64,000 bases of DNA from Candidatus Latescibacterota bacterium. Lineage in GTDB: Bacteria; Latescibacterota; UBA2968; GCA-2709665. The stretch is from assembly GCA_965248435.1 (NCBI GenBank), contig OZ252100.1, positions 2,464,001 through 2,528,000 of the forward strand, written 5' to 3'. The translations under genes and the position numbers were made by a program. Below the pieces are notes generated by a model. That model was not told the DNA's origin and ran no database searches. It saw nothing but the letters and a program-made list of their open reading frames with translations. Positions 21,486 to 51,618 of the stretch are shown in pieces (position 1 is the stretch's first letter; every line of letters begins with the position of its first letter).

Positions 21486-21551
21486 TTTGCGGTACCCGGT
21501 ACCAGTGTTTTGCCTTCCCGGTACCCGTGTCTTGCCTTCCCGGTACCCGTG
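21486..21551 (+). repeat. GGTACC-unit repeat cluster
   Basis: Units of GGTACCCGTGTYYTGCCTTCCC; last GGTACCCG lies 4 nt from the stop at 21554. Confidence 0.85.
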
Positions 21552-21553
21552 AC

Positions 21554-22030
21554 TTACTCTGAAGGAAGGCTCATCACCTTCCCATCTTTCGAGGTGACCT
21601 CCAGCCCGCCATCACCCTTCGGATCCGCGCCGGCAGTCACCAGGTTCTTTCCTTCGCTCGACATCACAGCCAGGAGCCCGTTCCCGCTATCCTTGTCTGC
21701 TCCCGCGAACACCAGATTCGTCTCGTTACTCGAATAGACTGCCAGCATCCCATTCCCCGCGTCACTCTGCGCGATCGTCGTCGTCCGGTTGCCCTCTGCG
21801 TTTCTCACGTCGATCCGTCCCCCCAGCATCCAGGAGTCCAGGTTCACGACCCAGTCTCCACTGTCGTTCACGATCCGGAGCCGCTTGCACTGAACGACCT
21901 CCTTCACCCCGGACCTGCCTGCAGCGGCACTGATTCCAGCCGCCAGAATCAGTGTAAGAATTACTGTCATCCTTCGCCAGCGGCGGACACTGATCTCCAG
22001 CTCGGTTAGGCAATCTCCTACGGTTTTCAT
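21554..22030 (-). CDS. Hypothetical membrane-anchored protein with short beta-repeats
   Basis: GGAGGAG RBS before ATG 22030; TM helix; repeated G.G.L.V.S..G units. Confidence 0.7.
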   Translation of the reverse strand: MKTVGDCLTELEISVRRWRRMTVILTLILAAGISAAAGRSGVKEVVQCKRLRIVNDSGDWVVNLDSWMLGGRIDVRNAEGNRTTTIAQSDAGNGMLAVYSSNETNLVFAGADKDSGNGLLAVMSSEGKNLVTAGADPKGDGGLEVTSKDGKVMSLPSE

Positions 22031-22224
22031 AATCTCCTCCCTGTCGATGTGTGAGCCTGAAAGCTCGCGCGATCCCAACATGATGAAGCTTATGGGGCCT
22101 CGAAATATTGCGAGTGCCAAGCGTCCTGTCAAACAAAATTGGGGCTTGAGCACCGTCCGAACTGGCGCTATATTGCGCCGGAACACGGGAGGGCGCGTTT
22201 CCACCTGGCGGAGGAGAAAAACCT

Positions 22225-22872
22225 ATGAGTGAAGCCAAAACGAGTGAAACCAAGCCCAGCATCAATATCTCACCGACCGGACCCTTCATCGTCAAAGGGC
22301 TGAAGCGGCTGACCGACGCGCAGGGCAACTCAATCGAAATAGACAAACCTGTGATCGCCCTCTGCCGATGCGGCGGCTCGAAGAACAAACCATTTTGTGA
22401 CGGCGCCCATTCATCCATCGGTTTCTCAGGTGCGAAGGAACGCGCCGAGGACTACGTGGCGAAGGAATTCGAGGGCAAGGAGCTTACGATCGTCGACAAC
22501 GTCGGGGTCTGCTGTCACGCCGGTGCGTGCGTGGACGGCGCGCCGTCTGTCTTTTTCAGCTGGGATGGAGACGAGCGCATCTCGGTCCCCGACGAAGCGG
22601 ACAAGCAGGCGATTATCGATACGATTCGGAAGTGTCCCTCCGGCTCCCTGGCATACAAGCTTCAGGACGAGCTGCACGATGAGTACTTCTCCGATCCGGA
22701 GATCTTCGTCTCGAAAGACGGACCCCTACACGTGCGAGGCGGGATCACCCTGAACAATCCCGCAGGAGAATCGCCGCTCGCATCCGACCATTTTACGCTT
22801 TGCCGGTGCGGCGTTTCGAAGAACAAGCCCTACTGCGACGGCGCGCACAAGGAGGCCGGGTTCGAGGGATAG
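22225..22872 (+). CDS. CDGSH iron-sulfur protein with a central divergent 4Fe-4S domain
   Basis: Two LCRCG.SKNKP.CDGAH motifs plus CCHAGAC...CPSGSL. Confidence 0.92.
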   Translation: MSEAKTSETKPSINISPTGPFIVKGLKRLTDAQGNSIEIDKPVIALCRCGGSKNKPFCDGAHSSIGFSGAKERAEDYVAKEFEGKELTIVDNVGVCCHAGACVDGAPSVFFSWDGDERISVPDEADKQAIIDTIRKCPSGSLAYKLQDELHDEYFSDPEIFVSKDGPLHVRGGITLNNPAGESPLASDHFTLCRCGVSKNKPYCDGAHKEAGFEG

Positions 22873-22908
22873 GCTGCGACGAAATCGAGTCCTACCGGAA
22901 GTACTGAA

Positions 22909-22939
22909 GAGGGGTTACGTTTCCGAAACGTAACCCCTC
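22909..22939. terminator. Perfect palindromic hairpin
   Basis: GAGGGGTTACGTTT-CCG-AAACGTAACCCCTC. Confidence 0.6.
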
Positions 22940-23036
22940 GAATCTTTCCAGGCCCCGGGTTTCTGACTCCACTGAAACCAGGCCCGTCGCCGGGCGTCTA
23001 AGAGTGCGGCCGACGTCGAGGAATTCACAAGAAATC

Positions 23037-23080
23037 TTGACGTTAGATGCGTCACGGATATATTTACTTACCGGTAAATA
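23037..23080 (+). promoter_or_regulatory. Efflux operon promoter with a palindromic TetR-type operator
   Basis: TTGACG-16 nt-TATATT; TATTTAC-N6-GTAAATA inverted repeat overlapping the -10; the operon ends in a tetR gene. Confidence 0.55.
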
Positions 23081-31666: not shown

Positions 31667-33088
31667 ATGCAGGAAGCGAACGAGGTCGAAGCCCTACAGT
31701 ACATCGAAAAACTCAATGACCTGCCGACGCTGCCGACCATCGCAACACGCGTCGTGAGCGTCACGTCAGATACGGACACGTCCGTCAAAGAAGTCGCCTC
31801 TCTGATCGAGAAGGACATGGCCCTTTCTGCCAAGATCCTCCAGGTCATCAACTCCACGTTCTACAGCTTTTCCCGCGAGATCGTCAGCGTACCCGAAGCC
31901 GTAAGCCTGATGGGCTTTACCCAGGTCGGAAATCTGGCCCTCGGCTTGTCGGTCGTCGAGGGCTTTCCAAGGGGACGGATATTCGGATTCAGCTTTCCGG
32001 AGTTCTGGGAGCGATCCGTGAGCAACGCCGTGGCCGCGGTCATGGCCGCCTCCAAGCTCAAGACAGAGGTCCCCGGCGGTATATTCACGACGGCCCTGCT
32101 GCAGGACATCGGCACCTACGTCCTGGTTCGATACCTCCCCCTCGCCTATGGGGATTCAGCAGGCGTGAGCCGGGAGAGGAGTGTCCACCGGGTGCACGCC
32201 GAACGAGATGTGATGGGGACCGACCACGCCGAGGTCGGTGCCCTGTTGTCAGAGAAGTGGAACCTGCCCCAGGCCATGCGAGTCGCCATCCGTCACCACC
32301 ACTTTACTGAATTCAGCCCCAAACTCGATCCGGAAATTCCCCAGAACGGCGAGGCGACGATGGTGAAGATCATCAACGTCTCCAACTTGATAACCGACGT
32401 GCTGTATGAAGAAGATGGGGAAGACCGACGGCCCGACCTGGATCAGCGCGTCAACGAGATCCTGGGCCTCCGACCCAATGATGTGGATGAGATCCTGGGC
32501 AAGCTTCCCGAGGAGATCGAAGGCATCAAGTCCCTCTTCCAGCTCCACACGATGCAGGAATCCGACGTCGAGGAGACCTATCACGAATCCTGCCCGAAGT
32601 GCGGCTCCGGAAAGAGCGTCAAGTACTGCGCGGACTGCGGGGGCTCGCTGATCCGGACGGGACCGGAAGAGGCACGAGAGGCCAGGAGAAAGATCGTCGT
32701 CGCCGAGGACTCGGAGGCGATCAGGACCGCCATCGTCTCATTGCTCAAAAAGCGGGGCTACAAGGTCTTAATCGCGATCAACGGAGCGGAAGCCGTAGAA
32801 ATAACGAAGGATGAACAGCCCGACATGGTCCTCATGGACATCCGCATGCCGATCATGGATGGAATCGAGGCGTTGAAAATCCTCCGACGTGATGTCCGCC
32901 TGCAGTCCACACCCATCGTGATGCTGACCTCGATCACGGACCTCAACACCGTCACCGAGGCGATCGAAGCCGGGGCGAACGACTACATCGCAAAGCCCTT
33001 CAAGGTCAGCAAGCTCCTCGAAAGCATCGAAAAATACGTGCACGCGAGTGCCGGCCCGGATCCTGCCTCCGAATACAACGTCAATTAG
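31667..33088 (+). CDS. HDOD + zinc-ribbon + receiver domain signalling protein
   Basis: LPTLP, DHAEVG..L.EKWNLP, CPKC..C..CG and AEDS..DIRMP..DG..KPF motifs. Confidence 0.9.
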   Translation: MQEANEVEALQYIEKLNDLPTLPTIATRVVSVTSDTDTSVKEVASLIEKDMALSAKILQVINSTFYSFSREIVSVPEAVSLMGFTQVGNLALGLSVVEGFPRGRIFGFSFPEFWERSVSNAVAAVMAASKLKTEVPGGIFTTALLQDIGTYVLVRYLPLAYGDSAGVSRERSVHRVHAERDVMGTDHAEVGALLSEKWNLPQAMRVAIRHHHFTEFSPKLDPEIPQNGEATMVKIINVSNLITDVLYEEDGEDRRPDLDQRVNEILGLRPNDVDEILGKLPEEIEGIKSLFQLHTMQESDVEETYHESCPKCGSGKSVKYCADCGGSLIRTGPEEAREARRKIVVAEDSEAIRTAIVSLLKKRGYKVLIAINGAEAVEITKDEQPDMVLMDIRMPIMDGIEALKILRRDVRLQSTPIVMLTSITDLNTVTEAIEAGANDYIAKPFKVSKLLESIEKYVHASAGPDPASEYNVN

Positions 33089-33104
33089 CCTTCCCGACCC
33101 CGCC

Positions 33105-33794
33105 TCAGATCAGATCAGGCCGAGCTACAAGGAGCTCGGCCTCTTTTGTGATTCGGATGGCGAATGGGGCCCGGTCGATATCCAGCGCGATTTCACGATC
33201 TTCAGGATGGAAGTGCGGCTGCTTCGGATCGCCGAATTTCTTTGACTCGTGCGCGTCGAGAATCAAACTTTTCACGGCCTCTGGATCCGGCTGCAGTCCC
33301 CTCAGCAGGTTACGCAGGTAGAGCGCACACTGTTCGTCCTCATCTGTACGCTCCGCAGCAGCCCAGCCCATCGCCACCAGCGTCACGACGTCTGGGGCGT
33401 CACGCAGAATCGCCTTCGCCGTTCCGCCCGCCACCAAAAGGGACCCTGCGTAAATCTGCGTGGCCCGTGTCGCGGCCGCCACGCCCACCGTGCCGGCCCG
33501 CGTCGACTGAATCAGCGTCTTCCCGGCCACATCCACCCCGGAGAGCTCGTGGGGAGAGTTGCCGAAGTCAAACCCTTCGGGGCGTTTCCCATCCACTTCG
33601 CCCACGCACAGACTTCCCACACCGCTCGCCTTGAGTGACAGTGCCTCGTCCACCTCGGCCACGAGAACGATCTTCTCCGCGCCCCGGAGAAACGCCACGG
33701 CCGCCGTCGTAAACGCCCGGTAGACATCGATGATGACCACGGTCCCTTCGGAGTTCTGTGCCCCCGCCAGAAGGCTCTCCAGTCGAATCTCCAC
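33105..33794 (-). CDS. comB: 2-phosphosulfolactate phosphatase (ComB family)
   Basis: VVIIDVYRAFTT, GFDFGNSP, STRAGT and EDEQCA; AAGGAG before GTG 33794. Confidence 0.85.
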   Translation of the reverse strand: MEIRLESLLAGAQNSEGTVVIIDVYRAFTTAAVAFLRGAEKIVLVAEVDEALSLKASGVGSLCVGEVDGKRPEGFDFGNSPHELSGVDVAGKTLIQSTRAGTVGVAAATRATQIYAGSLLVAGGTAKAILRDAPDVVTLVAMGWAAAERTDEDEQCALYLRNLLRGLQPDPEAVKSLILDAHESKKFGDPKQPHFHPEDREIALDIDRAPFAIRITKEAELLVARPDLI

Positions 33795-33821
33795 CCGATT
33801 CTCCTTTGATAGCACAAGCGA

Positions 33822-33848
33822 TTGAGACGCCCCAACGGGGCGTCTCAA
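33822..33848. repeat. REP-like palindrome
   Basis: TTGAGACGCCCC-AAC-GGGGCGTCTCAA. Confidence 0.7.
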
Positions 33849-33858
33849 CAGCGACGGA

Positions 33859-33907
33859 TGACGGTTTTACGGTACCCGGTACCCGTGTTTTGACTTCCCG
33901 GTGCCCG
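33859..33907 (+). repeat. GGTACC-unit repeat copy at the 3' end of ndh
   Basis: GACGGTTTTACGGTACCCGGTACCCGTGTTTTGACTTCCCGGTGCCCG. Confidence 0.8.
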
Positions 33908-35210
33908 ACTTACCCCTATCTCCAATCACCGGCAGAGGATCCAGCCCCGTTATCAGCCTGGCGCCCCGTTTCCTCGTGAAAAAATTCCACGCCCACTGGA
34001 AGAGCACGAGAACCTTGTTGTCGAACTCGATCAGGTAGGCGATGTGGATAAAGATCCACATCAACCAGGCCGGGAAGCCGCTGAATCGCAGGAAGCCGAA
34101 GTCGGCAACCGCCGCCTTTCGGCCGATCACCGCCAGGTTCCCCTTGTCGCGATATCGAAAGGGCCGTGACCGCTTCCCTGAGATCCGGGCACCGATCTGC
34201 GAAGCGACGTACCGGCCCTGCTGCATCGCCACCGGTGCGATGCCCGGCAGGGGACGCTCTCCTTGATGTCCAAAACACGCAAGATCTCCGATCACGAAAA
34301 GCTCGGGATGTCCGGGAACCGTCAGATCGGGCGCTACGATAACCCGTCCGGCTCGGTCCAGCGCGACGCCCGTCTCACGGGCAATCATCGCCCCGAGCGG
34401 TGAGGCCTTCATCCCAGCCGCCCACAGGACCGTGCGACACTGGATCTCTCGCTCGATTTCGCCCTGCATCACCGTAACAGAACCATCCTCGATCCGCGTC
34501 ACCAGCGTCCCGGTGCGCACCTCTACACCCAGTCGCTTCAAAGCGCGTTCAGCTCGGGCCGAAAGCAGCTGGATACGGCGGGAGCACGCGGTCCGTCCCC
34601 TCCAGCAGAAAAACTGCCGCCTCCCGCGTATCGATATGTGAAAAATCCCGCTTCAGTGTGTTGTGGGCCAGTTCGGCCACGGCACCAGCGAGCTCGACGC
34701 CCGTCGGACCCCCGCCCACGATCACGAAGTTCATCCACGCACGACGCGTCTCCGAGTCCGTTTCTCGCTCGGCCGCCTCGAAGGCCGTGAAGATGCGCCG
34801 CCGGATCTCGAGCGCATCTTCGATCGACTTCAGTCCGGGTGCGGTCTCGCTCCATTCCGGATGGCCGAAATAGTGATGACTGGAACCCGTCGCGATGACC
34901 AGGAGGTCATACAGCAGCTCACCGTCCCGGAGCACGACGCGACGGTCCGACACACTGAGGTCCACGACTTCCGCCTGAACGACACTGACATTCGGTGACC
35001 GGGCCAGGACGGCCCGCAGCGGAGAGGCGATGTCCCCGGGAGAGAGGCCGCCGGTGGCCACCTGGTAAAGCAGCGGCTGGAAGAGGTGAAAATTTCTTCG
35101 GTCCACCAGGGTCACGCGGACCCGGAATCGACCAAGTCGCTGGGCCGGTAAAGTCCGGCAAAACCGCCGCCTACGATGACCACGTGAGGCACGTCCTTTT
35201 CCAAAGCCAC
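33867..35210 (-). pseudogene. ndh: Type II NADH dehydrogenase, frameshifted at about 35147 and 34567
   Basis: VVIVGGGFAG, FQPLLYQVATG, VGGGPTGVELAG and APVAMQQG spread over three consecutive frame segments. Confidence 0.88.
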
Positions 35211-35352
35211 TGGATTACCTCATTACCCGGATCTTGACAAAATCCATTCGGAAAGATATACTGTCTTCACGCCTCCGAGTCTGGATAGGCGATTCCCGGG
35301 CTCTGCGCGAAAACCGAAAAGGGTGTGGCCGGGACTGAACCTGGAGACAAAC

Positions 35353-36216: not shown

Positions 36217-36329
36217 TTCTCAGGCATCAGAACCACCCGTCTCGAGTCCCCTCTTTTGGAAGGGGATTTTTTTTTTTGATCCTCTCTGCACCCTCCGCGC
36301 CTCTGCGGTAAAGTTTGTTTTTCGAACGG

Positions 36330-36435
36330 TGAACGACGGTTTTACGGTACCCGTGTCTTGCTTTCCCGGGGCGACGCCTGCGTCGCCCCAAAACCGTCAG
36401 GTCTCTGTAGCCCATCTACTGTATCCCGGTACCCG
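36330..36435 (+). repeat. Composite GGTACC/REP element (about 105 bp)
   Basis: Colinear with 51508-51618; contains a GGGGCGAC..GTCGCCCC hairpin. Confidence 0.85.
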
Positions 36436-36810: not shown

Positions 36811-36880
36811 AGTCCTCTACTCCTTCCTGTGCGGCTCGATCTTTTTCGTGGAATTTCGTGTGCTTTCGTGATCCAGCCTT

Positions 36881-36910
36881 TCCGCAATCCCAAATCCGCA
36901 ATCCGCAATT
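36881..36910 (-). repeat. Heptamer tandem repeat (ATTGCGG-type)
   Basis: TCCGCAATCCCAAATCCGCAATCCGCAATT; related tracts at 3348 and 38039. Confidence 0.8.
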
Positions 36911-36975
36911 AAAAAGGGATCCTGCCTTTCCTCCGGATCCCCTTCTCGTTCTATCTCTCACACTGAACGTTCCGG

Positions 36976-37977: not shown

Positions 37978-38038
37978 GGTTTTTCCTGTCTTGTCGCGCC
38001 TACAACTTCAGATCTTCTTTACTGCCGCTTTTGCCCTT

Positions 38039-38128
38039 CAATCCGCAATCGCCAATCCGCAATCCGCAATTGACTCACTCGACTTTCCCGACCCACGATA
38101 CCCGTGTTTTGTCTTCCCGGTACCCGGT
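38039..38128 (+). repeat. Heptamer tract followed by a GGTACC unit
   Basis: CAATCCGCAATCGCCAATCCGCAATCCGCAAT, then ACCCGTGTTTTGTCTTCCCGGTACCCG 5 nt from the stop at 38132. Confidence 0.75.
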
Positions 38129-38131
38129 TAA

Positions 38132-38716
38132 TTACTTCTCTTCTACCAAACCCCCTGCTTCTAAGATGCGCCAGAAATCAACATCCGCCTGGTGCACGAT
38201 CGTGTTCTCCAGGCTCCGCACAACGAACTCCCCCTCCGCCGAGTGCCCGCCTGCGATATGCGCGACTTCCTCGGGAAGCCCAACGGTCAGGCAGATGTGA
38301 ACGCCATACCCGGGGTGTCGGATCGAGGGCCACCCTTTGGCACGAGGATCTTCCTTCCAGCGCACCTGGCGCTCGGGATCGAACTCCCAGGGTTTGCCCA
38401 CGTCGTGACACAGCCCGCCGGCGATCAGGGTGTCCCTGTCGACCTTCAGGTCCGGAAACATCTCCATCAATTCGTCAGCGATGCGCACGGCCAGCCGGGT
38501 CACGCCGCGGATATGGTCTGTCTGTGTACCTGACTTGAGCGGTGGGGTATCCGGGTTTCCCGAGGGTCGGATCTCGGATATCGATCCGAAACTGCTCCCG
38601 GCGAGCGAAGTGGCCCAGGCCTCGACGACCTTGTCCCGTAGCTCGGGATCCGAAATGTCCTCCACCTCTGGCAGGTCCTCACGAACCCTGGATCGCAGTT
38701 CATCTGTCACGGTCAT
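38132..38716 (-). CDS. HD-domain phosphohydrolase
   Basis: DH..GV, LCHDVGK, RH..YG and HQAD motifs. Confidence 0.88.
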   Translation of the reverse strand: MTVTDELRSRVREDLPEVEDISDPELRDKVVEAWATSLAGSSFGSISEIRPSGNPDTPPLKSGTQTDHIRGVTRLAVRIADELMEMFPDLKVDRDTLIAGGLCHDVGKPWEFDPERQVRWKEDPRAKGWPSIRHPGYGVHICLTVGLPEEVAHIAGGHSAEGEFVVRSLENTIVHQADVDFWRILEAGGLVEEK

Positions 38717-38825
38717 AGCCTACCCAGCCCCATATGAAACTTGGAGTGCTTCTGGCGCAATAATCTATTTCCCTCTAAACACGATGTCAAGCCAAGTCCC
38801 ACCGGATTCCTTTTTTTGACACCCC

Positions 38826-39806
38826 TCAATCCCTCACCGTGAGCACGACCTTCCCGATGTTCCGATTCTCTGCGAGCATTTGGTGGGCCGCTTCTGCCTC
38901 AGTGATGGGCAGTACAGTGTCGATGATCGGGATGATCTTGCCGTCGACCAGATCACCCCAGAACCGCTCGGCGAATCTCCTGGCGATCGTCGTCTTCTCA
39001 TCGAGCGACCGGCTGCGCAGTACAGATCCGATAATCCGCAGCCGCTTTCTCATCACCGTCCCCAGGTCGATTTCCGCCCGCGCTCCGGTCAGCAGGGAAA
39101 TCACCACCAGGCGACCTCCGGTCTTCAAGACCTCTATGTTGGAGGCCAGGTAGCCGCCCCCAGCGATGTCCAGGACGACATCTACGCCAACGTCGCAATG
39201 ATCCAGAATCGTCCTGACAAAATCCTTCTCCTTGTAGTTCACGCCGAATTCCGCGCCTAATGCCCTGCAGCGTTCCAGCTTGGCCTCGCTCCCGGCCGTA
39301 ACGAAGATTCGACACCCTGCCTCTCTCGCCAGCTGAATCGCCGCAGTGCCGACCCCGCTCGCCCCGCCGTGGATCAGCACCGTCTCTCCTTCATCCAAAC
39401 CTGCTTCCATGAACAGATTCACAAAAGCTGTGTAGAACACTTCCGGCACCGCGGCAGCATCGGTGATGCTCCACCCGTCTGGAATGCGCATCAGGATCGA
39501 AGCAGGGACGGCGACCTTTTCCGCATAACCTCCTCCTGGAAGCAATGCACAGACGCGGTCGCCGGTCTTCCAGCCAAGAATACCAGGATCCTTGTCAGTA
39601 ATCACCCCCGCCATCTCCAACCCCATGTATGGAGAGCCGCCCGGCGGCGGCGGATACAGCCCGGCCCGCTGGAGAAGGTCCGCACGGTTTACGGCGGTCG
39701 CGTGAACCTCCGCGAGAACCTCGTCCTCTTTGGGGACGGGATCCGGGACCTCCTGCCAGTTCAGAGCGCGCCCCTCGCTTTCGGTGTCGATCACGATCGC
39801 CTTCAA
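38826..39806 (-). CDS. NAD(P)H:quinone oxidoreductase (PIG3/MDR family)
   Basis: VNRADLLQR.G.YP, GLEMAG, IHGGASGVG and GKVVL motifs. Confidence 0.93.
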   Translation of the reverse strand: MKAIVIDTESEGRALNWQEVPDPVPKEDEVLAEVHATAVNRADLLQRAGLYPPPPGGSPYMGLEMAGVITDKDPGILGWKTGDRVCALLPGGGYAEKVAVPASILMRIPDGWSITDAAAVPEVFYTAFVNLFMEAGLDEGETVLIHGGASGVGTAAIQLAREAGCRIFVTAGSEAKLERCRALGAEFGVNYKEKDFVRTILDHCDVGVDVVLDIAGGGYLASNIEVLKTGGRLVVISLLTGARAEIDLGTVMRKRLRIIGSVLRSRSLDEKTTIARRFAERFWGDLVDGKIIPIIDTVLPITEAEAAHQMLAENRNIGKVVLTVRD

Positions 39807-40549
39807 GCTGTCGGGACCCCTCTGATTTTATCGTTGGACGGTGTGCAGAGCGTTTCGGAGGCCCAACCCAGCTCGACGAACAGGGCTTCGACCTCCTCCG
39901 GAACGGGACACTCTATATTGACAGGCTTTGAACTGTAGGGGTGCTCGAAGGCCAGGTCTGATGCGTGAAGCAAGAGCCGCCTGATACAGAACGTATCCCT
40001 GAAGAATCGATTCTGCTTCCCGTCGCCGTGCGTCGTATCCCCGATCACCGGGTGGGAAACGTGTGAGAAATGCCTGCGGATCTGATGGAACCGTCCCGTC
40101 AGCGGCATCGCCCTCACGAGCGAGAATCGCGCACTCGGATGAGGGCCCACAGGAAGCGGCAGCTCCACGGTCGCCTCTCTTTCATATTCCGTAATCGCAT
40201 CAGCGGGGTCCTTTTCCGGCGTTTCCCGAAGCGCGTGATGAATCCGGCCTCGCTCCGGGGTGTGACCCCGGACCACGGCAAGGTAGCCCTTCTGCACCAG
40301 ACGTCTCTCGAACAGCAGACACATCTTGTTGGCAGCTTCTGGATCGAGCGCGAAGGTCAGGATGCCCGACGTCGCCCGATCCAGGCGGTGAACCGGGTAG
40401 ACGCGCCTGCCGATCTGGTTGCGCAGCATCATCATGCACGTGGGTTGTCTGCGCGCAAGCCTTGTGGGGTGAACGAACAGACCGCTCGGCTTGTGGACCG
40501 CAATGTAATGATCGTCTCGGTAAATGATATCCAGCAGCGTTTGGCTCAT
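39803..40549 (-). CDS. truC: tRNA pseudouridine synthase (TruC/RluA family)
   Basis: KPSGL.VH, HRLDRATSG, TGRFHQIRRH and IGDTTHGDGKQN motifs. Confidence 0.85.
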   Translation of the reverse strand: MSQTLLDIIYRDDHYIAVHKPSGLFVHPTRLARRQPTCMMMLRNQIGRRVYPVHRLDRATSGILTFALDPEAANKMCLLFERRLVQKGYLAVVRGHTPERGRIHHALRETPEKDPADAITEYEREATVELPLPVGPHPSARFSLVRAMPLTGRFHQIRRHFSHVSHPVIGDTTHGDGKQNRFFRDTFCIRRLLLHASDLAFEHPYSSKPVNIECPVPEEVEALFVELGWASETLCTPSNDKIRGVPTA

Positions 40550-40653
40550 AGCGTAGTTTATCGTGATTGGTTGTTACTCACCCAAATCAATCAACCGGTC
40601 CGGTATTGTCATATGACGAACGACGATTCGCGAACCACGATGCTCGATTTTGC

Positions 40654-40772
40654 GGTACCCTGTTTTGCCTTCCCGGTACCCCGTGTCCTGCCTTCCCGGT
40701 ACCAGTGTCCTGCCTTCCCGGTACCCGTGTCCTGCCTTCCCGGTACCCCGTGTCCTGCCTTCCCGGTACCCG
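40654..40772 (+). repeat. Tandem array of about five 21-23 bp GGTACC units
   Basis: Consensus GGTACCCGTGTCCTGCCTTCCC, no spacers; ends 2 nt from the stop at 40775. Confidence 0.95.
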
Positions 40773-40774
40773 TT

Positions 40775-41482
40775 CTATTTGATGGCGACCAATTCCACCT
40801 CAAATACCAGCGTCGAGTTCGGCCCGATCGTCCCCCCTGGGCCTCGCGGCCCGTAGGCCAGGTCCGAAGGGATGTAGAGCTCCCACTTCCCCCCTACCTT
40901 CATCAACTGGAGGGCCTCGGTCCACCCGGCGATCACCTGGTTCACTCCAATATCCAGCGGCTTTCCACGCTTGTAGGAACTGTCGAACTCTGTGCCGTTG
41001 ATCAAACGCCCCCGGTAGTGCGCGCTCACGGTCTGGGTCGCCGTGGGGGACCCACCTGTACCGCGCTTGAGTACTTTGTACTGCAGGCCGCTCGGCAGAG
41101 TGACGACACCCTCTTTTGTCATATTCTCCTTTAGAAACGCTTCCCCCTCCTTGCGATTTCTCTCCGCGACTCCTGAAGCCGCTTCACCGCCCGCCGGTTT
41201 ATCCACGGCCTGGGACTCGGCCATCCGCTTCTGGAGCGCCATCAGGGCGTCGCTCATCTCAGATTCCGACATCAGGCGTTCCTCACCCTCGAAAACGTCC
41301 CTGAAACCGGTCGCGAAGGCCTTTGCATCCAGGTCCACATCCTGGCCTTTCAGCGTCTTTCCGATCGAAACGCCCATGCTGTAGCTCGCCTTCTCCTTGT
41401 CGGTCTTCAGTTCCATCTTGCCCTGCTCCGTCTGGCATCCCAAGAAACAAACCAGAAGCACCAAACCGGTCACGCGACTCAT
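40775..41482 (-). CDS. FKBP-type peptidyl-prolyl isomerase (FkpA/Mip-like lipoprotein)
   Basis: FLGC lipobox; KASYSMG, SGLQYKV, FDSSY and VIAGWTEAL motifs. Confidence 0.95.
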   Translation of the reverse strand: MSRVTGLVLLVCFLGCQTEQGKMELKTDKEKASYSMGVSIGKTLKGQDVDLDAKAFATGFRDVFEGEERLMSESEMSDALMALQKRMAESQAVDKPAGGEAASGVAERNRKEGEAFLKENMTKEGVVTLPSGLQYKVLKRGTGGSPTATQTVSAHYRGRLINGTEFDSSYKRGKPLDIGVNQVIAGWTEALQLMKVGGKWELYIPSDLAYGPRGPGGTIGPNSTLVFEVELVAIK

Positions 41483-41522
41483 GCCGACTCCTTATCGTGA
41501 GAAATGACCACCCCGAGCTCGT

Positions 41523-43058
41523 TCAGAGCTCGAAACGGGCCTCCACTTCCGCGAGGACAATCCTCGGGATATCCTCCTGCTTCTCCACAGGGTAGACGCA
41601 GATGTTCTTGGACGGATTCACGGCCTCCCTGAACCGTTCTGTCTCCTGGCTCCTGCCCACGTGAACCGCGGTCACGCGACATTGGGCCCCCTGAAGGTAG
41701 CTCGTCACCGCCTCCAGATTCGTAATCTGCATGTCCGTGATGATGAAAATGTCCGATCGTTCGCGTCTCAACAGATCGAAATCGGGAAGGTGAAGCGCCG
41801 TCCCCCCGCCGAAGTAGCGGCACAGGGCGCCGTAGACCTTCCTTCTGTCCCGGGTGAACGGCACCATCTCACGCCCCCCTGCGGGGGCGTCGCTGAAATT
41901 GTAGACCGCAACGCTCCGATCTCGATTCAGGTAGGCGTCCACCGCGCATCCCGCGCCCAGAACCGCATACGACAGCTCCTTGCACGGATTCGTCATGCTT
42001 CCGGACGAGTCGATCACGACGAGGCAGTCCGGGGTACCCTCATCCGTCCCGTGCGTCTCCCCCTGCTTGCGTTCCCAGACCTGTGAAATCCCGGGAAGCA
42101 CCTTTCCGAAGCTCGTCCAGACGTCGATGTCTTCCACTGGACGGCCCACCTCCCACGGCGAATGAGAATGGGGATGCAGTCCGCCCACCTTCTCCATCGG
42201 GAGTGTTCGGACCCGAAGGGCGTAGGACCCTGCCCGATTCATGTAGAACAGGACGTCCGCATCACTCGGAATCCCTTTTCCCCGCCCCATCCCACCCTCC
42301 GGCAGGTTTCCGGTGACCTCCAGCTCTTCACGGAAATCCTCTACCATCGCTCGAAAAGCGTAATACCCTCGCTCTGCGAATCGCTGGAGCCCCTGGTCGA
42401 CCTCTTCCGCGGAGTACTGCTGGGCGCCGTGGGATCCCATCATCCCGTCTCCATCCAGTCCGGTCCGATCCTCCTCTTCTTCGAGCAGCGGCGCCACGAC
42501 GTTTGAAAACGCCTTCAACGCCTCCCCCCAGCGCGCGCGATCCAGATACGGAATCCGCGAAAGTCGCGAAACCGCCTCCGGCTCGATCTCGACGCCGAGG
42601 TCGACGCCCCAGATCCGCTGATACAGAGCCCTGAGCACCTCCTCGACCCCGCCCCCGCGCACCTGTCGATACAGCTCCGGCAGCCTCGAGTCGCGTTCCT
42701 TCACGCAGTGTGTATCCACGACGACATCCGAAAAGTAATTCACCACCCGCTTGACTAGCTCGCCGTCCAGCAGCACCGGCTTCAGCTCAGCATAAAGCGC
42801 CAGGTGGGTATCGAAGTCCCAGGGACAATACGTATGGTGCGCCACTCCGTGGTCCAGCAGAGCCTCCACCACCTCCTCTGCCGGGAGTTCCGCTGCCAGT
42901 TCTTCCACGTGCGCGCGGCTGAGACCGAGCTGCTTTCCGACCATCTCGATGCGAACGGCCTCTTCATCGTCCGAAATCTGCGGCACGGGCAATTCAGGGA
43001 AGAGATGCCTCTCTCTGACCTTCGGCCAGACGTTTTCTATGATCTGTTTCAGATCCAT
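41523..43058 (-). CDS. vWA domain protein
   Basis: VVIDSSGSM MIDAS, NFS, GGT and ITD motifs; ATG at 43058. Confidence 0.85.
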   Translation of the reverse strand: MDLKQIIENVWPKVRERHLFPELPVPQISDDEEAVRIEMVGKQLGLSRAHVEELAAELPAEEVVEALLDHGVAHHTYCPWDFDTHLALYAELKPVLLDGELVKRVVNYFSDVVVDTHCVKERDSRLPELYRQVRGGGVEEVLRALYQRIWGVDLGVEIEPEAVSRLSRIPYLDRARWGEALKAFSNVVAPLLEEEEDRTGLDGDGMMGSHGAQQYSAEEVDQGLQRFAERGYYAFRAMVEDFREELEVTGNLPEGGMGRGKGIPSDADVLFYMNRAGSYALRVRTLPMEKVGGLHPHSHSPWEVGRPVEDIDVWTSFGKVLPGISQVWERKQGETHGTDEGTPDCLVVIDSSGSMTNPCKELSYAVLGAGCAVDAYLNRDRSVAVYNFSDAPAGGREMVPFTRDRRKVYGALCRYFGGGTALHLPDFDLLRRERSDIFIITDMQITNLEAVTSYLQGAQCRVTAVHVGRSQETERFREAVNPSKNICVYPVEKQEDIPRIVLAEVEARFEL

Positions 43059-43059
43059 C

Positions 43060-43770
43060 TCAGCTTCCCGTTTCTGCGGACGTGCCGGACGCCTCCGAAG
43101 GATAGACCCTCCGGCTCCGGTGGTAGATCTCCCCGCCGAGCGGCTTCCCCATCCCGCCGATCTTTCCGAACAGGTGGATCTCGCCACCGATCATCTGCTC
43201 TCCGATGAAGCGACCCGCTTCCCCCTTTATGTCCGTCCGTCCTTTCGTCATACCGGCTCCAAGATAGCGACCGACATTGCCACGGACTTCGAGATGACCC
43301 CCATCCAGCGAAATCCCGACCAGGTCACCCAGGTCGCCCTCCACTGTCAGGCTGAGTCCCGTCCTCAATCGATAGCCAAGAAGCGGAATGCGTGTGCCGC
43401 GCGTCCCGAGGTTCATCCGGATTTCGGTCGACGTGCAGGCGTTGCACAGGGCGGACAGATACAGCCCCAGGGGACCCATCAGAAAAAACCCCGGGTCACT
43501 GCTCTGCGTCGCGTGGAGACAGAAGGCCTCGATATCCAGGGCCTCGAACTCTATCTCCGCAACGATTCCTTCAGCGTGTTCATATACCCGGACGATCGAA
43601 TCCGCGTCCGGCTGCCAGGCACCCTCATCCGCTTCGTCGGAAACGAGCAGTTTATATCCGTCCTCCAGCCGGGACATCACCGAGGCGTGAGCCTCCAGAA
43701 TCTGATCCAGGGGGATCTTCCGCTCTGGCGGGGCCGCGTAATCGCGAAACTCTTCGAAGGGGTTGTTCAT
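43060..43770 (-). CDS. GXGXG-motif (FwdC/GltB C-terminal-like beta-helix) protein
   Basis: Repeats V.GD.G..VG...GG, GNVGRYLGAGM..G and GEAGRFIGEQM.GGEI. Confidence 0.75.
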   Translation of the reverse strand: MNNPFEEFRDYAAPPERKIPLDQILEAHASVMSRLEDGYKLLVSDEADEGAWQPDADSIVRVYEHAEGIVAEIEFEALDIEAFCLHATQSSDPGFFLMGPLGLYLSALCNACTSTEIRMNLGTRGTRIPLLGYRLRTGLSLTVEGDLGDLVGISLDGGHLEVRGNVGRYLGAGMTKGRTDIKGEAGRFIGEQMIGGEIHLFGKIGGMGKPLGGEIYHRSRRVYPSEASGTSAETGS

Positions 43771-43879
43771 CTCACCTTAGGTAAAAATCGTGATCTACGG
43801 ACCACGGACCGCTCAAGCCCAAAACATCACACTATTCATCCCGCGGTCTGCCGTCTGTGGTCTGCGGTCCGATATGGCT

Positions 43880-45226
43880 TCACTTTGCTTCACCCATCGG
43901 GACCGGCGGCTCCATCCCCAGGTCCCGCATGATCTGGGCGTAGATGGGATGATCTCCCTCCACCGCCTTCTCCTCCGCGCCATCGAAGATCCTGCAGGCC
44001 GTCGCGAGTGCGCCCTTGATCCGATCGCCCTGTTCACTGTAACGTCGGAACACCTCTCGTACAGCCTCGCGGGTGCGGTGAATCGGAAGGATGTCCTGCC
44101 GCCTGCCATCGACGCCGTTATGATCATCCCGCCACTGGACCCGATGAGCGGAAGCGTAGGGGAGGACGGCACGCAGGTGCTCCACGTCTACGGTGGCACT
44201 TCCTGAGAGCCAGGCCAAAGCTTGTGCATATCGACGGACAGACATCGGGAGACGATTCGACGGACAGTTCGTAACCGCGTAACAGAGATACCCCGTGTAA
44301 TGGCATCCCTCTCCGCAGACTTCGTTCGACCGCTTCTGGCCGTACTTGCAGCAGAAGGACAGCTCTGCCAGATAGGTTCGCATAAACCCGCTGGCATCCT
44401 CGTCAAAATCTAATCCCGCTACCTCCGCACGAGCGGCATCCCGCTCGGCCCGACCGAGGGTCGGCACGCCAAGTCGTCGTTCCAGGGCGGCACCGTATCC
44501 ATCGCAGACCGAATCCAGCCCTTCAAGGCCGTTCGGCTTCTTCAAGCAGTCTCGCAGCGCGGTCTCGTGTTCCTCGTCCCGCAGCAGGTGATACGGAGGG
44601 TCTTCCTTACCGATCATCCACGACAGGTTGGGACCGGGGTGCTTCGATTCCACCATCACGTCGAACCGATCCAGAAGGGGCGGCACGATCGTATTCGTCC
44701 CTCGATCCTGATAATTGCACGTCGCGAAAAGGGAGAACTCCCGATTGATCACCGCCTGGTTCAAGTAGGTCCAGTTTCCACGGTCCACGCCGTCCAGAAT
44801 CATGCTCTGTTTCGTCTCCGGAAGGCGGTTGATCTCGTCCACCACCTTCACCGGAAGCAGGGCGAATCCGGACCAGACGACCTCCTCGATCCCCTTGTTG
44901 AGCTGCCCCAGGTCGGGACGTCCCACGATCTTTTCCTCGGTCTGTTCGGGGTGTCCCGAGACCTCCGCCTCCCAGATCGTCCCCAGGGGAAGCCGGTAAA
45001 GCAGCGCGCCGATATACTCGGCGGATGTCGTCTTTCCGAGTCCGGGCTCCCCGACGATCAGCTCCTTGCCGCCGACCAGTCCCGTCAGCAGGCCGAACAG
45101 GACGGCCGCGTTCTGCTGCTCCCCTTTGACCTCCAGATCAGGCCGATTGAAGTAGAGCCGGTCCTGAATGAACGCCAGAATGTCCTTCAGCTTTCCTCTG
45201 AGTGCATCAGAATTCATTCGTGCCAC
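43880..45226 (-). CDS. MoxR-like AAA+ ATPase
   Basis: Walker A GEPGLGKT, Walker B VVDEINR, LLDRFD; Cys-rich insert near the C-terminus. Confidence 0.88.
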   Translation of the reverse strand: MARMNSDALRGKLKDILAFIQDRLYFNRPDLEVKGEQQNAAVLFGLLTGLVGGKELIVGEPGLGKTTSAEYIGALLYRLPLGTIWEAEVSGHPEQTEEKIVGRPDLGQLNKGIEEVVWSGFALLPVKVVDEINRLPETKQSMILDGVDRGNWTYLNQAVINREFSLFATCNYQDRGTNTIVPPLLDRFDVMVESKHPGPNLSWMIGKEDPPYHLLRDEEHETALRDCLKKPNGLEGLDSVCDGYGAALERRLGVPTLGRAERDAARAEVAGLDFDEDASGFMRTYLAELSFCCKYGQKRSNEVCGEGCHYTGYLCYAVTNCPSNRLPMSVRRYAQALAWLSGSATVDVEHLRAVLPYASAHRVQWRDDHNGVDGRRQDILPIHRTREAVREVFRRYSEQGDRIKGALATACRIFDGAEEKAVEGDHPIYAQIMRDLGMEPPVPMGEAK

Positions 45227-45283
45227 CCGTTTTCATGCTGAGAAACGGAAAATAAAATATCCAATGTCCAATGGGAGAGAGCT

Positions 45284-45423
45284 TGCCCCGGTATGCCTAA
45301 AGCCGGGGTGCTTTAAGCGGGGGATGCCGAGCCCCTCGACAGGCTCAGGGTAAACTCCGCGAGGCAGGATGAGGGCCCGTGTTTTGCCTTCCCGGTACCC
45401 GTTCTTTGCTTTCCCGGTACCCG
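45284..45423 (+). repeat. Mixed repeat cluster (CCCCGG hairpin, CTCGACAGGCTCAGG, two GGTACC units)
   Basis: GCCCCGGTATGCCTAAAGCCGGGG resembles the inverse of 61644-61667; GGTACC units end 4 nt from the stop at 45428. Confidence 0.7.
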
Positions 45424-45427
45424 CTCT

Positions 45428-46228
45428 TTAAGGGCGATCCTCTGCCCGATCCTGCGGAACGTATCCCACTACCTCTCTGGCGTGTTCGATGTCCACCCAG
45501 ATGTACTGATTATTCGATATCCCATAAAAGATGTCGAACCTGAGCGCATCAGGCGCATCCACGCAGCGCTCGGCGAGCTGCACCACGTCCCGCTGGCTGG
45601 ACCAGACCGGGGCGAGCGCCAGACTGACGGGCCGGTCCGGGGCGTTGACGGCTCCGATCCGAAGGCAGATGCATGAAAGCCCGTGCACGTCCGAGTAGAT
45701 CCTGGCCAGTGCTTCACCCCACACCTTGCTCGCCGAGTAGGGCTCCGTCGGCCGCGGCGGATCCAGGTGCGTCACCTTTGGAATCTCAGCAGGAACGTCA
45801 TCAAATCGACCCTCTTTGATTGCCTTGTAAGGCTCATCGAACTGGTAGCCCCACGAAGCCATAATCGAGCTGGCGAAGACGATCCGCTTCACGCCCGCCA
45901 CCCTGCTCGCTTCGAACACGTTGTAGGCACCGATCATGTTGCTGGACAGAATCTGCTCCCAGCTCGCCTGGGGCCGCGGATCCGCCGCCATCTGCACGAC
46001 CACATCCATCCCCTCTACGGATCGCCTCACGGCGTCAAAATCTGAGAGGTCGGCCAGAAAGAACCGGTCATCCGGGATGTCCAGGACCAGGTCCTGGGAG
46101 ACGCGCTCCGAAGGCACTCGCCTTCGGGCAAGGGCATAGACCTCATACCGATCCGTCAGCTGGACTAATCGTTGATAGATGGCCGCGGCAATCAGTCCGT
46201 ATACGCCAGTAATAAGAACCTTCTGCAT
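45428..46228 (-). CDS. NAD-dependent epimerase/dehydratase (uronate dehydrogenase-like)
   Basis: VLITGVYGLI, VFASS, YSASK and CLRIG motifs. Confidence 0.85.
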   Translation of the reverse strand: MQKVLITGVYGLIAAAIYQRLVQLTDRYEVYALARRRVPSERVSQDLVLDIPDDRFFLADLSDFDAVRRSVEGMDVVVQMAADPRPQASWEQILSSNMIGAYNVFEASRVAGVKRIVFASSIMASWGYQFDEPYKAIKEGRFDDVPAEIPKVTHLDPPRPTEPYSASKVWGEALARIYSDVHGLSCICLRIGAVNAPDRPVSLALAPVWSSQRDVVQLAERCVDAPDALRFDIFYGISNNQYIWVDIEHAREVVGYVPQDRAEDRP

Positions 46229-46346
46229 AGAACAATCCTTTAGGTAGGGACGGTGATTTTCCATCCATGCCAGCCAAAATCTCAACCATAATTGGGATAA
46301 ATTCCGTCCATGTCAAACGGATTCCTCTAAAGGTCGATGAATTTCG

Positions 46347-49884: not shown

Positions 49885-49917
49885 GACAATACCTCCTTCT
49901 TCCTCGTAAAGAGAACG

Positions 49918-50625
49918 CTAGTAGAATGCTTGGACGATCGCTAGAAACTCTTTCCAGCCCAGCACCACTGCATCCGGCTCGACCCCGTCGTTGGGATCAC
50001 CGACCCGGTTATACCAGACCCCTGTCATCCCTGCGCTCTTGGCCCCTCTTACGTCGTACTTCAACGAATTCCCCACATACCACACGTCCTTCGGTTCGAG
50101 ACCCAGTTTAGCCGCTGCCGTCTGCATGATCAAGGGGTGGGGTTTAGAAACCCCATAGTCTGCACTCGACATCAAAAATTCGAAATAGTCTGCCAGGCCC
50201 TGCCGCTCCAGTTCCGACGAAAGCGTACGTCCGCTGAAGGTCGCGTTGCTCACGATCGCCATGGGAAGTTCCATTCGAGTGAGCGCCTGAAGCGTGGATT
50301 CAATCTCCGGCTCTCGGGTGAACTTCATGGAGGTCTTGAAGAACTCGAGTTCGACCTCCTCCTGCGAAAGACTAAACGTAATCCCGTGAGCTTCGTAAAC
50401 GAGACGATGGACCCAATCAGAACGAAGTTCCAGCATCGACGCGTCCCTTCGAGCTTCCAGGTCTTCCCACAATTCCGCGACAAGATCCTGTACATCTCGT
50501 GCACTCAGGCCCCTTGGATTTTCAGCAAACTGGAGGACGTGTTCGGTCCCGGATAAAGGATCCATCCCTTCGTAGGTCAGAAGGGTATCCCCCAGATCGA
50601 ACAGAATGCCTTTCGGTCTTCTCAT
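49918..50625 (-). CDS. HAD-superfamily hydrolase
   Basis: FDLGDTL, VSN, KPHP and VGNS...DV motifs. Confidence 0.9.
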   Translation of the reverse strand: MRRPKGILFDLGDTLLTYEGMDPLSGTEHVLQFAENPRGLSARDVQDLVAELWEDLEARRDASMLELRSDWVHRLVYEAHGITFSLSQEEVELEFFKTSMKFTREPEIESTLQALTRMELPMAIVSNATFSGRTLSSELERQGLADYFEFLMSSADYGVSKPHPLIMQTAAAKLGLEPKDVWYVGNSLKYDVRGAKSAGMTGVWYNRVGDPNDGVEPDAVVLGWKEFLAIVQAFY

Positions 50626-50657
50626 GTTGGTGTTTTGAACCATGATCAATCCTTATT

Positions 50658-50710
50658 CCCTCTCCCATTTATGGGAGAGGGACGCCGAGCGAAGCGAGGC
50701 AGGGTGAGGG
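50658..50710. repeat. REP-like CCCTCTCCC..GGGAGAGGG..GGGTGAGGG element
   Basis: CCCTCTCCCAT-TT-ATGGGAGAGGG hairpin plus GGGTGAGGG. Confidence 0.7.
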
Positions 50711-50721
50711 CCCGAGGGTTG

Positions 50722-51480
50722 TTATGGCTTCATAGCAGAGAACAGCGTACGCCGAAAGGCGTAGAGGATTTTCTCCGTAGGGTAGAGCCCACGCAGCCGG
50801 GCGCGGTATTCATTCAGGAAGGCGGTCTTGACCTCGCTGGAGAGTCGGTCGAAATAGGGAAGGAGAACCGTCCCGGAGGTCCATTCCACGAGTGCGTCGG
50901 CGTCCTTCATAAGATGCGGGTACACCTTCTCGAACACCTCGATCTCCCCTCCTCCGTGCTCGTGCAGCAAGACCGCGTACTCATCTACGCTGAGCACCGG
51001 AAAGGTTCGAACCCAGCCGTTCAGGGCGCTCCGGAAAGGCTCCTCGCCGGCGATCTCAACGATCGTCCGATACACAGGATGGTGATGGTTCGACGGAAGC
51101 TGAACGGCCAGCTGGCCGCCTGGATTCAGCAGGGCCAGAAGCCGGGGGACGAGCGCCTGATGATCCGGGACCCACTGGATGGCCGCGTTCGAAAACACCA
51201 GGTCCCACTGCCCCTCTATGCTTTCGATCTCCCCGCTCTTGAACGCCAGGCCAGGCCCCACGTACTCCTTCGCCTTTTCCAACATTTCTTGCGAACTGTC
51301 GATCCCCAGGACATCACTTCCCGGCAAACTGTCCGAAAGCCTCCGGGTCATCTCGCCCGTCCCGCACCCCAGATCGATCACGGACAGCCCATCGCGAACT
51401 CCGATCAGCTTCAGCAGATCCGCGAACGGGGCGAATCGCTCCGCCTTGAACTTCAAGTAGCACTCAGGATCCCAGGGCAT
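50722..51480 (-). CDS. tam: Trans-aconitate 2-methyltransferase-like SAM methyltransferase
   Basis: MPWDP..Y..F..ER..PF.DL, DLGCGTG, SNAAIQWVPDH and LAVQLP motifs. Confidence 0.85.
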   Translation of the reverse strand: MPWDPECYLKFKAERFAPFADLLKLIGVRDGLSVIDLGCGTGEMTRRLSDSLPGSDVLGIDSSQEMLEKAKEYVGPGLAFKSGEIESIEGQWDLVFSNAAIQWVPDHQALVPRLLALLNPGGQLAVQLPSNHHHPVYRTIVEIAGEEPFRSALNGWVRTFPVLSVDEYAVLLHEHGGGEIEVFEKVYPHLMKDADALVEWTSGTVLLPYFDRLSSEVKTAFLNEYRARLRGLYPTEKILYAFRRTLFSAMKP

Positions 51481-51507
51481 TCTTTCTCCGCGGTTTTGCG
51501 CCTTCCT

Positions 51508-51618
51508 TGAACGACGGTTTTGCGGTACCCGGTACCCGTGTTTTGATTTCCCGGGGCGACCCAGCGTCGCCCCCAAACCGTAAGATCCTTGTAACCTATC
51601 TACCTATCCCGGTACCCG
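51508..51618 (+). repeat. Composite GGTACC/REP element (about 110 bp)
   Basis: Colinear with 36330-36435; ends 3 nt from the stop at 51622. Confidence 0.85.

Follow-up and report, generated by a model that had tools for sequence, protein, structure and literature searches.

Interspersed 22-bp GGTACC repeats behind the stop codons of leading-strand genes in a Candidatus Latescibacterota bacterium

A 64,000-nucleotide stretch of DNA from a Candidatus Latescibacterota bacterium (contig OZ252100.1; 2.464-2.528 Mb of a 5.66-Mb contig, G+C 56.6%), referred to here as the window, carries at seven loci a short repeat built around the hexamer GGTACC. Across the genome these sequences constitute a genus-specific family of interspersed 22-bp repeats, arranged head-to-tail, which obeys two polarities at once. 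The copies lie in sense orientation behind genes, with a marked preference for the first few nucleotides past the stop codon, and they are confined almost entirely to genes transcribed in the direction of replication. A double polarity of this kind, post-stop and replicative, appears to be undescribed for the known bacterial intergenic repeats with which the family was compared. The explanation that we tentatively favour, judging from sequence alone, is a 3′-untranslated region (3′-UTR) element resembling the repetitive extragenic palindromic (REP) sequences and bacterial interspersed mosaic elements (BIMEs), which would be laid down strand-specifically behind stop codons and may have a function there. 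The spread and function of known repeats, including REPs, BIMEs and mycobacterial interspersed repetitive units (MIRUs), are still debated after decades, and the present family adds two measurable constraints, namely a spacing of 5-8 nt from the stop and a near-exclusive pairing with genes co-directional to replication.

Units were called throughout the source genome (G000) at up to three mismatches, which gives 224 units at 138 loci; a looser set, at up to four mismatches, holds 247 units against 7 for a reversed control pattern. On the sense strand, the consensus reads CG-GGTACC-GGGAAAnCAAAACACG-GGTACC, and (A)RGACCG precedes the first GGTACC. The arrays comprise from 1 to 31 units, with a single unit in 115 of the 138 loci and 2-31 in the remainder, and units inside an array are near-identical variants private to that array. 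An extra terminal G-GGTACC is present in 64/138 loci, and many loci run on into a GYAAAACCG tail followed by heptamers of the CGTGGAT/CGTCGTT or GCGGATT types. The hexamer itself is unusually intergenic: 500 of the 1105 GGTACC sites in the genome (45%) fall between genes, compared with 6-38% for 23 other GC-matched palindromic hexamers. Restriction avoidance of GGTACC was considered and rejected, the genic count being ordinary (observed/expected 1.2).

The relation of the family to stop codons was assessed against 4489 genes called with a purpose-built codon-usage model, a crude caller whose stop positions are nonetheless usable because they depend on the reading frame alone. A co-oriented gene lies upstream of 124 of the 138 loci. 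In 44 of these 124, the element starts 2-8 nt past the stop, where uniform placement within the same intergenic region would give 9.1, and the maximum reached in 20,000 simulations was 21. The original prediction from the window had staked itself beforehand on a genome-wide bias relative to stop codons, and such a bias is present both in distance and in orientation. The signal also appears when no units are called: the first GGTACC lies 2-8 nt past the stop in 57/2821 leading-strand genes and in 5/1668 lagging-strand genes, and the offsets of the leading-strand genes peak sharply (20 genes at offset 6 and 17 at offset 7). The spacer between stop and element is purine-rich and ends in CG, and its length ranges from 2 to 8 nt across all three stop codons. 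Since the spacer varies in this manner, element and stop are not rigidly joined, and a fixed stop-containing repeat was rejected. TAA is about twice as frequent at element-bearing stops (23/57) as among all stops of the genome (960/4489).

The second polarity is relative to replication. The purine-rich sense strand of the element is the leading strand in 128 of the 138 loci. The orientation reverses between 2.90 and 3.02 Mb, where the cumulative GC skew has its fine-scale minimum, with dnaA at 3.08 Mb. A sense element follows 103/2821 leading-strand genes compared with 5/1668 lagging-strand genes (odds ratio 12.6, p = 1.4e-15), and the imbalance persists when only genes with at least 40 nt of downstream spacer are counted (101/1715 leading versus 5/960 lagging), in repeat-dense regions (25/239 versus 1/177) and in the densest region (50/380 versus 0/148). 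The original prediction had cautioned that replichore bias could not be excluded from a single window. Strong replichore polarity was indeed found, but it is separate from the bias towards gene ends: a co-oriented gene end lies upstream in 118 of the 128 replication-co-oriented loci, though only ~63% of genes are on the leading strand, and 6 of the 10 anti-polar loci still lie behind a co-oriented gene. The gene-side and replication-side polarities are not the same thing. In the neighbourhoods of the anti-polar loci, local skew and gene strands are mixed, and clear inversions were not seen. The loci extend over 4.6 Mb and occur in both replichores, and none lies between 5.11 Mb and 0.48 Mb, a stretch of ~1 Mb that spans the skew-defined terminus. 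The heptamers that accompany the units are less polar than the units themselves (71:15 and 55:23).

Within the window, a scan with GGTACCCGTGTYYTGCCTTCCC at up to three mismatches, controlled by 100 dinucleotide-preserving shuffles, returned 12 units, all on the plus strand and all at the seven loci named in the original prediction, while no shuffle contained a match. Independent evidence comes from Tandem Repeats Finder, which places arrays of period 22 at 21495-21555 (2.8 copies), 40653-40773 (5.5 copies) and 45376-45429 (2.5 copies). The distances from stop codon to CGGGTACC that had been claimed in mRNA sense for five of the loci, listed in the table below, proved exact, and so did a 27-nt gap containing CGTGGAT heptamers that separates the stop at 36463-36465 from the element behind it. 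The further claim that all seven lie at the 3′ end of a minus-strand gene needs one qualification. At the locus at 33859 the stop is ambiguous, with TAG at 33916-33918 and TAA at 33910-33912 in competition and a longer open reading frame (33867-34541) that reads through the element. The genes upstream of window elements are ordinary, encoding an FKBP-type isomerase, an HD-domain protein, an NAD-dependent epimerase/dehydrogenase-like protein and a Gfo/Idh/MocA oxidoreductase.

Explanations by chance or by faulty assembly can be regarded as refuted. In a comparison of contigs from three public runs with window 33001-46000, the short-read unitigs break at every repeat locus, so misjoins are possible in short-read assemblies, but the matches are missing from all 100 shuffles, the same family with the same two polarities recurs in a second genome, and a contig from another study's run (37675-40055) spans the locus at 38090 with the unit in place. 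Another contig suggests ~40 extra bases at the locus at 33859, an indication too weak to be used. None of the five public runs listed as containing window 36001-46000 is an RNA run.

The second genome (G001) is the one other genome of the genus among those searched, and the comparison covered its first 400 kb together with one 21-kb locus (L014). In the first 400 kb, all 68 of 68 units lie on the leading strand according to GC skew, and GGTACC occurs 5-8 nt past the stop in 16/230 leading-strand genes and 0/32 lagging-strand genes. The taxonomic range is narrow. A looser 28-mer pattern searched among 41 relatives matched only in the source genome (144) and in G001 (56). A 17-mer junction pattern searched in 168 genomes of the phylum gave 140 and 43 matches in these two and 1-2 each in 15 others, where the reversed-pattern control gives 0-3 matches per genome. 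The other 166 genomes searched in the phylum are at chance level, and the family was thus met in one genus only. In a genome of the sister genus (G010), the frequent 12-mers of two 400-kb stretches and the tandem repeats of the second revealed nothing comparable, heptamer arrays only; this was a weak look, since the first stretch is terminus-proximal, where the source genome also lacks the family, and the second is almost devoid of GC skew. The heptamers seen there are TCTACCG/GGTAGAC.

Collinear orthologous sites in the two species often share a unit, usually with the same spacer variant, while the number of units differs (0, 1 or 2) and the flanking intergenic DNA is mostly unalignable. Shared units are ~85-100% identical, compared with 73% (584/800) at third codon positions of the upstream genes. 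Among the 13 source-genome loci of the syntenic stretch whose flanks are collinear, judged by eye, the unit is clearly kept in 4, altered in 2 or 3 and missing in 6 or 7. A comparison of presence and unit number at orthologous sites, which had been proposed as a check, accordingly finds units at about half of the sites, in varying number. Copies are inherited vertically at many orthologous sites. The stop falls at the same codon wherever the unit is present in both species; where it is present in one of them alone, the two stops coincide or differ by a single codon. The element is therefore placed behind a stop that already exists and leaves the C-terminus unaltered, and remodelling by insertion was rejected.

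The explanation that we tentatively favour, a strand-specifically placed 3′-UTR element, would unfold in several steps. New copies would be laid down by a strand-specific process acting on the lagging-strand template, which is the sense strand of leading-strand genes, and insertion would take place directly behind a stop codon in a purine-rich context, so that both polarities would follow from one step. Arrays would then expand and contract by replication slippage. Stop-anchored copies begin as little as 6-7 nt past the stop; they must therefore share a transcript with the upstream gene, and would form the beginning of its 3′ UTR or of an intercistronic RNA. The retained copies would probably serve as a sequence-specific protein-binding site or form a weak GGUACC:GGUACC hairpin and, by analogy with REPs and BIMEs, might act in 3′-end protection or in events at translation termination. 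When a ribosome pauses on the preceding codon, downstream structures reach its mRNA entry channel at a distance equal to this spacing of 6-7 nt.

A more specific form of this process is rather unlikely. The repeats would have been left behind by a process, mobile or templated, whose homing sites are stop codons in the lagging-strand template. Its target, somewhat improbably, would be the sense-strand stop with its purine-rich 3′ context, met in single-stranded DNA at the fork by a putative enzyme. Such homing would explain at once the start at 6-7 nt, the mRNA sense and the restriction to leading-strand genes. For the strand-polar insertion of the favoured explanation, a precedent is offered by the insertion sequence (IS) families IS200/IS605, whose excision and insertion use the lagging-strand template, according to the available parts of two papers (PMC3333891, PMC6006769).

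Several observations weigh against the favoured explanation or its mobile component. The sharing of spacer variants between orthologues dates most copies to before the two species separated, which argues against recent mobility. No terminal inverted repeats, target-site duplication or clean filled/empty pair was seen at the compared sites, and wherever the relative has no unit, the whole intergenic region is unalignable. No mobilising enzyme tied to the family was found in the source genome. Conservation is strongest at ACACGGG and CCGGGA and not over the whole palindrome, which may not be essential: in the longest array, 20 of the 31 units read GGAACC in place of GGTACC. This array (source genome 3898307-3898988), whose orthologue in the second species has 25 units (G001 68901-69604), extends over ~700 bp and sits past an intrinsic-terminator-like hairpin; it is therefore not obviously in a 3′ UTR and may instead form a transcription unit of its own or serve as a DNA site. 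In 44 of the 124 co-oriented loci the called unit begins at least 60 nt from the stop, some of these being composite loci whose first GGTACC is stop-anchored. Finally, RNA structure is weak. Fold z-scores against shuffles range from -1.14 to +0.71 for single-unit elements and are -0.64 and -1.64 for the composites, and the 5-unit array alone stands out (z = -3.98). The earlier proposal of either a stop-targeted non-autonomous element or a 3′-UTR regulatory or protein-binding signal is partly supported, as regards the genome-wide bias.

A purely selected cis-signal at the 3′ end of the mRNA, itself immobile, is a serious though not very likely alternative. A putative RNA-binding protein or RNA would read the ~22-nt motif, and the restriction to the leading strand, a part of the proposal to which we give the same limited credence, would stem from a G-rich sense strand that may be prone to R-loops or G-quadruplexes and would be tolerated only co-directionally. 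The tight stop spacing (5-8 nt, mode 6-7) and the sense orientation of 124 of the 138 loci are as this alternative would have them. So is the identity of units and spacer variants at orthologous sites, which stands out against diverged third codon positions and flanks and fits vertical inheritance, and so is conservation that is sequence-specific along the whole unit. Together with the weak folding, that conservation makes it no less likely that a protein recognises the RNA or the DNA than that a bare hairpin is at work. Each unit carries two GGG tracts on the sense strand (GGG-TACC-GGG-N12-GGG-TACC-GGG), and 88 of the 138 loci have at least four such tracts with loops of up to 16 nt, a possible long-loop G-quadruplex. 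The proposal presupposes the link between head-on transcription and R-loops. On the sense strand, most one-base variants of GGTACC are wobble-compatible, with C>T or A>G 14 times and G>A or T>C twice, but strand-biased deamination of cytosine would explain the asymmetry just as well. In the relative, the unit is missing from about half of the collinear orthologous sites.

The genes upstream of the repeats also bear on a selected signal. Among 111 of them there are 78 related pairs, compared with 4-12 in five random sets, so that paralogous families are enriched. Pfam assignments, which cover 57 of the 111, include DUF6785/DUF6784, sulfatases, GFO/IDH/MocA, GH28-like beta-helix, PhyH and DHDPS families, typical of polysaccharide use. 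Unrelated housekeeping genes (formate-tetrahydrofolate ligase, shikimate kinase, dehydroquinate synthase and an Mrp/ParA-type ATPase) are nevertheless found upstream as well, and no single regulon is evident. Repeat-bearing genes are longer than the other leading-strand genes of their region, and their codon typicality is slightly higher (0.210 versus 0.184 per codon).

Rfam gave a tRNA as the sole match at E <= 1 in window 20000-53000 and no family for the repeats. An intrinsic (Rho-independent) terminator was rejected: no U run follows the units, and true terminator-like hairpins lie further downstream, as at about 21432-21462, past the first window element. A CsrA sponge, with GGA in hairpin loops, was excluded because no CsrA domain was found in the source genome (97.5% complete), which likewise deprives the cis-signal of CsrA as a candidate binder.

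The replication polarity and the regular period could instead reflect a DNA-level architectural site, an unlikely alternative by our estimate. By analogy with the gyrase, IHF or Pol I sites in the BIMEs of Escherichia coli, which stand where transcription units end (3′), a dimeric protein would occupy GGTACC palindromes 22 bp (two helical turns) apart, or the repeats would act as a polar signal for a translocase or the replication fork. The 6-bp palindrome recurs at an exact 22-bp period with terminal doublets 7 bp apart, a very strong replichore polarity reverses at the origin, no locus lies across the terminus between 5.11 Mb and 0.48 Mb, RNA folding is weak, and the ~700-bp array is kept in both species past a terminator. 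A DNA site, however, needs neither a 6-7 nt spacing from the stop nor mRNA sense; its polarity would have to be read from the spacer, because the palindrome is symmetric; and the longest array has lost the palindrome in 20 units. Polar motifs such as the FtsK-orienting polar sequences (KOPS) and Chi share with the family a strong leading-strand skew that flips at the origin. KOPS and Chi are 5-8-mers inside genes, and KOPS become denser towards the terminus. The GGTACC elements measure 22-700 bp, are intergenic, stand behind stops and are missing from the terminus-proximal 1 Mb.

Gene order in the two species raises another alternative, which is very unlikely: the co-oriented repeats would be portable homology for excision and re-insertion of gene blocks, so that genes would be shuffled like cassettes and still stay on the leading strand. 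In the window, two segments that carry genes, 40536-45437 (4.9 kb) and 33801-36471 (2.7 kb), are missing from the orthologous place in the relative's locus L014 (at 7463-7504 and 11638-11755), and GGTACC repeat loci bound both of them on each side. In G001, the first ~100 kb are a mosaic of blocks of 1-3 kb that map to scattered places in 3.0-4.0 Mb of the source genome, nearly all in the same relative orientation and with a repeat at many junctions. Synteny breakpoints fall in 12/25 repeat-bearing compared with 33/190 repeat-free intergenic regions (odds ratio 4.4, p = 0.001). Within strata, however, significance is lost (10/13 versus 15/28 in 0-100 kb, p = 0.19; 2/12 versus 18/162 in 100-400 kb, p = 0.63), and repeat richness and rearrangement may simply share a region. 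Several small blocks of the mosaic are in addition paralogues at 70-80% identity, and a homology of 22-60 bp is short for RecA-type recombination. As for integron attC sites, inspection by eye revealed no inverted core sites in the units, while intI was not searched for.

Among known repeats, the REP, BIME and REPIN families are the closest in general character. Like the GGTACC family, they are high-copy, lineage-specific, intergenic, mostly downstream of coding regions, plausibly transcribed and mosaic with other short motifs, and the literature, as far as it was accessible, also describes vertical inheritance over long times. In the available part of one paper, REPs are predominantly downstream of genes, their termini can abut the stop and GTAG can supply a TAG stop (PMC3733652). 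The GGTACC family agrees in copy number, intergenic location and position downstream of genes (138 loci, 124 of them behind a co-oriented gene), but membership among REP/RAYT (REPIN) elements was rejected. Self-complementarity is limited to the 6-bp GGTACC, where a REP has a long stable hairpin formed by an imperfect palindrome of 20-40 nt. A GT[AG]G tag is missing, (A)RGACCG standing before the first GGTACC and GTAG occurring only in a hairpin module described below and in other REP families. Inverted doublets are missing too, since all arrays are head-to-tail, and no Y1 gene flanks the units. The 22-bp direct repeats are, furthermore, polar at 128 of 138 loci, whereas the canonical REP families of the same genome have no replichore polarity (33:34 and 32:22).

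MIRUs resemble the GGTACC family in another way, as intergenic direct tandem repeats that are oriented like the flanking genes, are positioned at codon level at a gene end and behave as variable-number tandem repeats. MIRU units measure ~40-100 bp and carry a small open reading frame for translational coupling, and we know of no replichore rule reported for them. The GGTACC arrays share the direct-tandem, variable-number character, with 1-31 units and numbers that differ between orthologous loci. They lack a small open reading frame suited to coupling: the unit is 22 nt long, which is not a multiple of 3, so that the reading frame shifts with every unit, and the spacer measures 2-8 nt. They are also anchored to the upstream stop and not to the downstream start, while MIRUs insert at start codons with an internal reading frame coupled to the gene, as the accessible part of one source has it (PMC12548453).

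With the IS200/IS605 families, the GGTACC repeats share an orientation fixed relative to replication (128/138 and 68/68 in the two genomes) and, as far as the partly available sources go, a position directly 3′ of a short target. They differ in having no distinct left and right ends, no visible guide/target pairing and no coding capacity. Five matches to the Y1-transposase family PF01797 were found in the source genome, two IS200-like and three RAYT-like, with no GGTACC unit within ~400 nt on either side. The hairpins that flank these genes differ from GGTACC units, and RAYT or IS200 proteins were rejected as mobilisers; the IS200-like copies end in GTGGAAATRAATTTCCAC and GCGGGAATTCATTCCCGC hairpins, unrelated to the units, so the ends of the repeats are not like those of resident IS hairpins. 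The IS200-like tnpA genes (138 aa; 2292474-2292890(-) and 3762366-3762782(+), loci L009 and L010) are mutually diverged, both on the leading strand, and share subterminal hairpins; at L009 there is also a short derivative from which the gene has been deleted. The RAYT-like frames lie at 3752749-3753285, 3604358-3604939 and 1386468-1386818. Two of them are flanked by a REP family of their own (GGTAGGAGCC...GGCTCCTACC and GCACGGGCGG...CCGCCCGTGGCACACGTGA), and the third is truncated, with no such repeats seen beside it. In the literature searched, which excluded most subscription journals, no family restricted to the first bases past leading-strand stops was encountered.

The family matters in several respects. 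If its polarity arises at insertion, a single-strand mechanism that reads the context of stop codons would be implied, and a stop-codon-homing element would represent a new insertion logic for bacterial miniature elements. If the polarity arises by selection, it would give a natural read-out of which 3′-UTR sequences are tolerated head-on and which co-directionally. In practice, the rule marks true stops and gene orientation in a poorly annotated candidate phylum, and the arrays offer variable-number markers for strain typing in metagenomes.

Elements at the seven window loci (positions in the window; the strand is that of the mRNA sense)
Element	Positions	Strand	Preceding stop or remark
2 units and terminal extra GGTACC	21491..21549	-	TAA of open reading frame 21554-22204(-), 4 nt before CGGGTACC
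1 unit, first hexamer degenerate (GGCACC); then G-GGTACC and tail GTAAAACCGTC	33860..33907	-	stop ambiguous
composite: GGTACC, GGGA, ~60-nt hairpin module (36369-36427), one unit, tail	36332..36435	-	sense order; stop at 36463-36465, 27 nt away
1 unit, distal hexamer degenerate (GGTATC)	38087..38126	-	TAA of HD-domain gene 38132-38716(-), 5 nt before CGGGTACC
array of 5 units	40646..40772	-	TAG of FKBP-type isomerase gene 40775-41482(-), 2 nt before CGGGTACC
2 units	45373..45423	-	TAA of NAD-dependent epimerase/dehydrogenase-like gene 45428-46285(-), 4 nt before CGGGTACC
composite: GGTACC, GGGA, hairpin module (51554-51610), one unit, G-GGTACC, tail GCAAAACCGTCGTTC	51510..51618	-	TAG of Gfo/Idh/MocA oxidoreductase gene 51622-52605(-), 3 nt before CGGGTACC

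The composite elements contain a REP-like hairpin module of ~60 nt (GGGGCGACGCnnGCGTCGCCCC), which lies inside the unit between GGGA and GGGA/GAGA in 32 of the 138 loci, including those at 36330 and 51508 in the window; some of its copies carry a GTAG tag. The module is probably a separate element inserted into the unit, since the relative has plain units that lack it at the orthologue of source-genome position 3744956.

Heptamer tandem arrays (CGTGGAT/CGTCGTT, GCGGATT, CGCAGAG, CACGAAA and GGTACCG itself) occur in many intergenic regions of the source genome, and in the window at 17069-17106, 36443-36459, 36881-36909, 38039-38070 and 43843-43869. The array at 38039-38070, of the GCGGATT type, lies beyond the element at 38087..38126. 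Such intergenic arrays recall the short tandemly repeated repetitive (STRR) heptamers of cyanobacteria.

Other features of the window were noted in passing. The open reading frame at 36463-36810(-) encodes 115 aa. Its match to class-III aminotransferases/glutamate-1-semialdehyde aminomutase (~430 aa) is confined to their first ~80 residues, and it therefore represents a truncated gene. At locus L014 of the relative, N- and C-terminal aminotransferase parts are joined in a frame of ~210 aa, relative to which the window copy lacks a further ~216 bp. A 153-bp tandem repeat (2.7 copies) occupies 12812-13218, with 15/30-bp repeats at 12542-12783, in a stretch that is strongly C/T-skewed.

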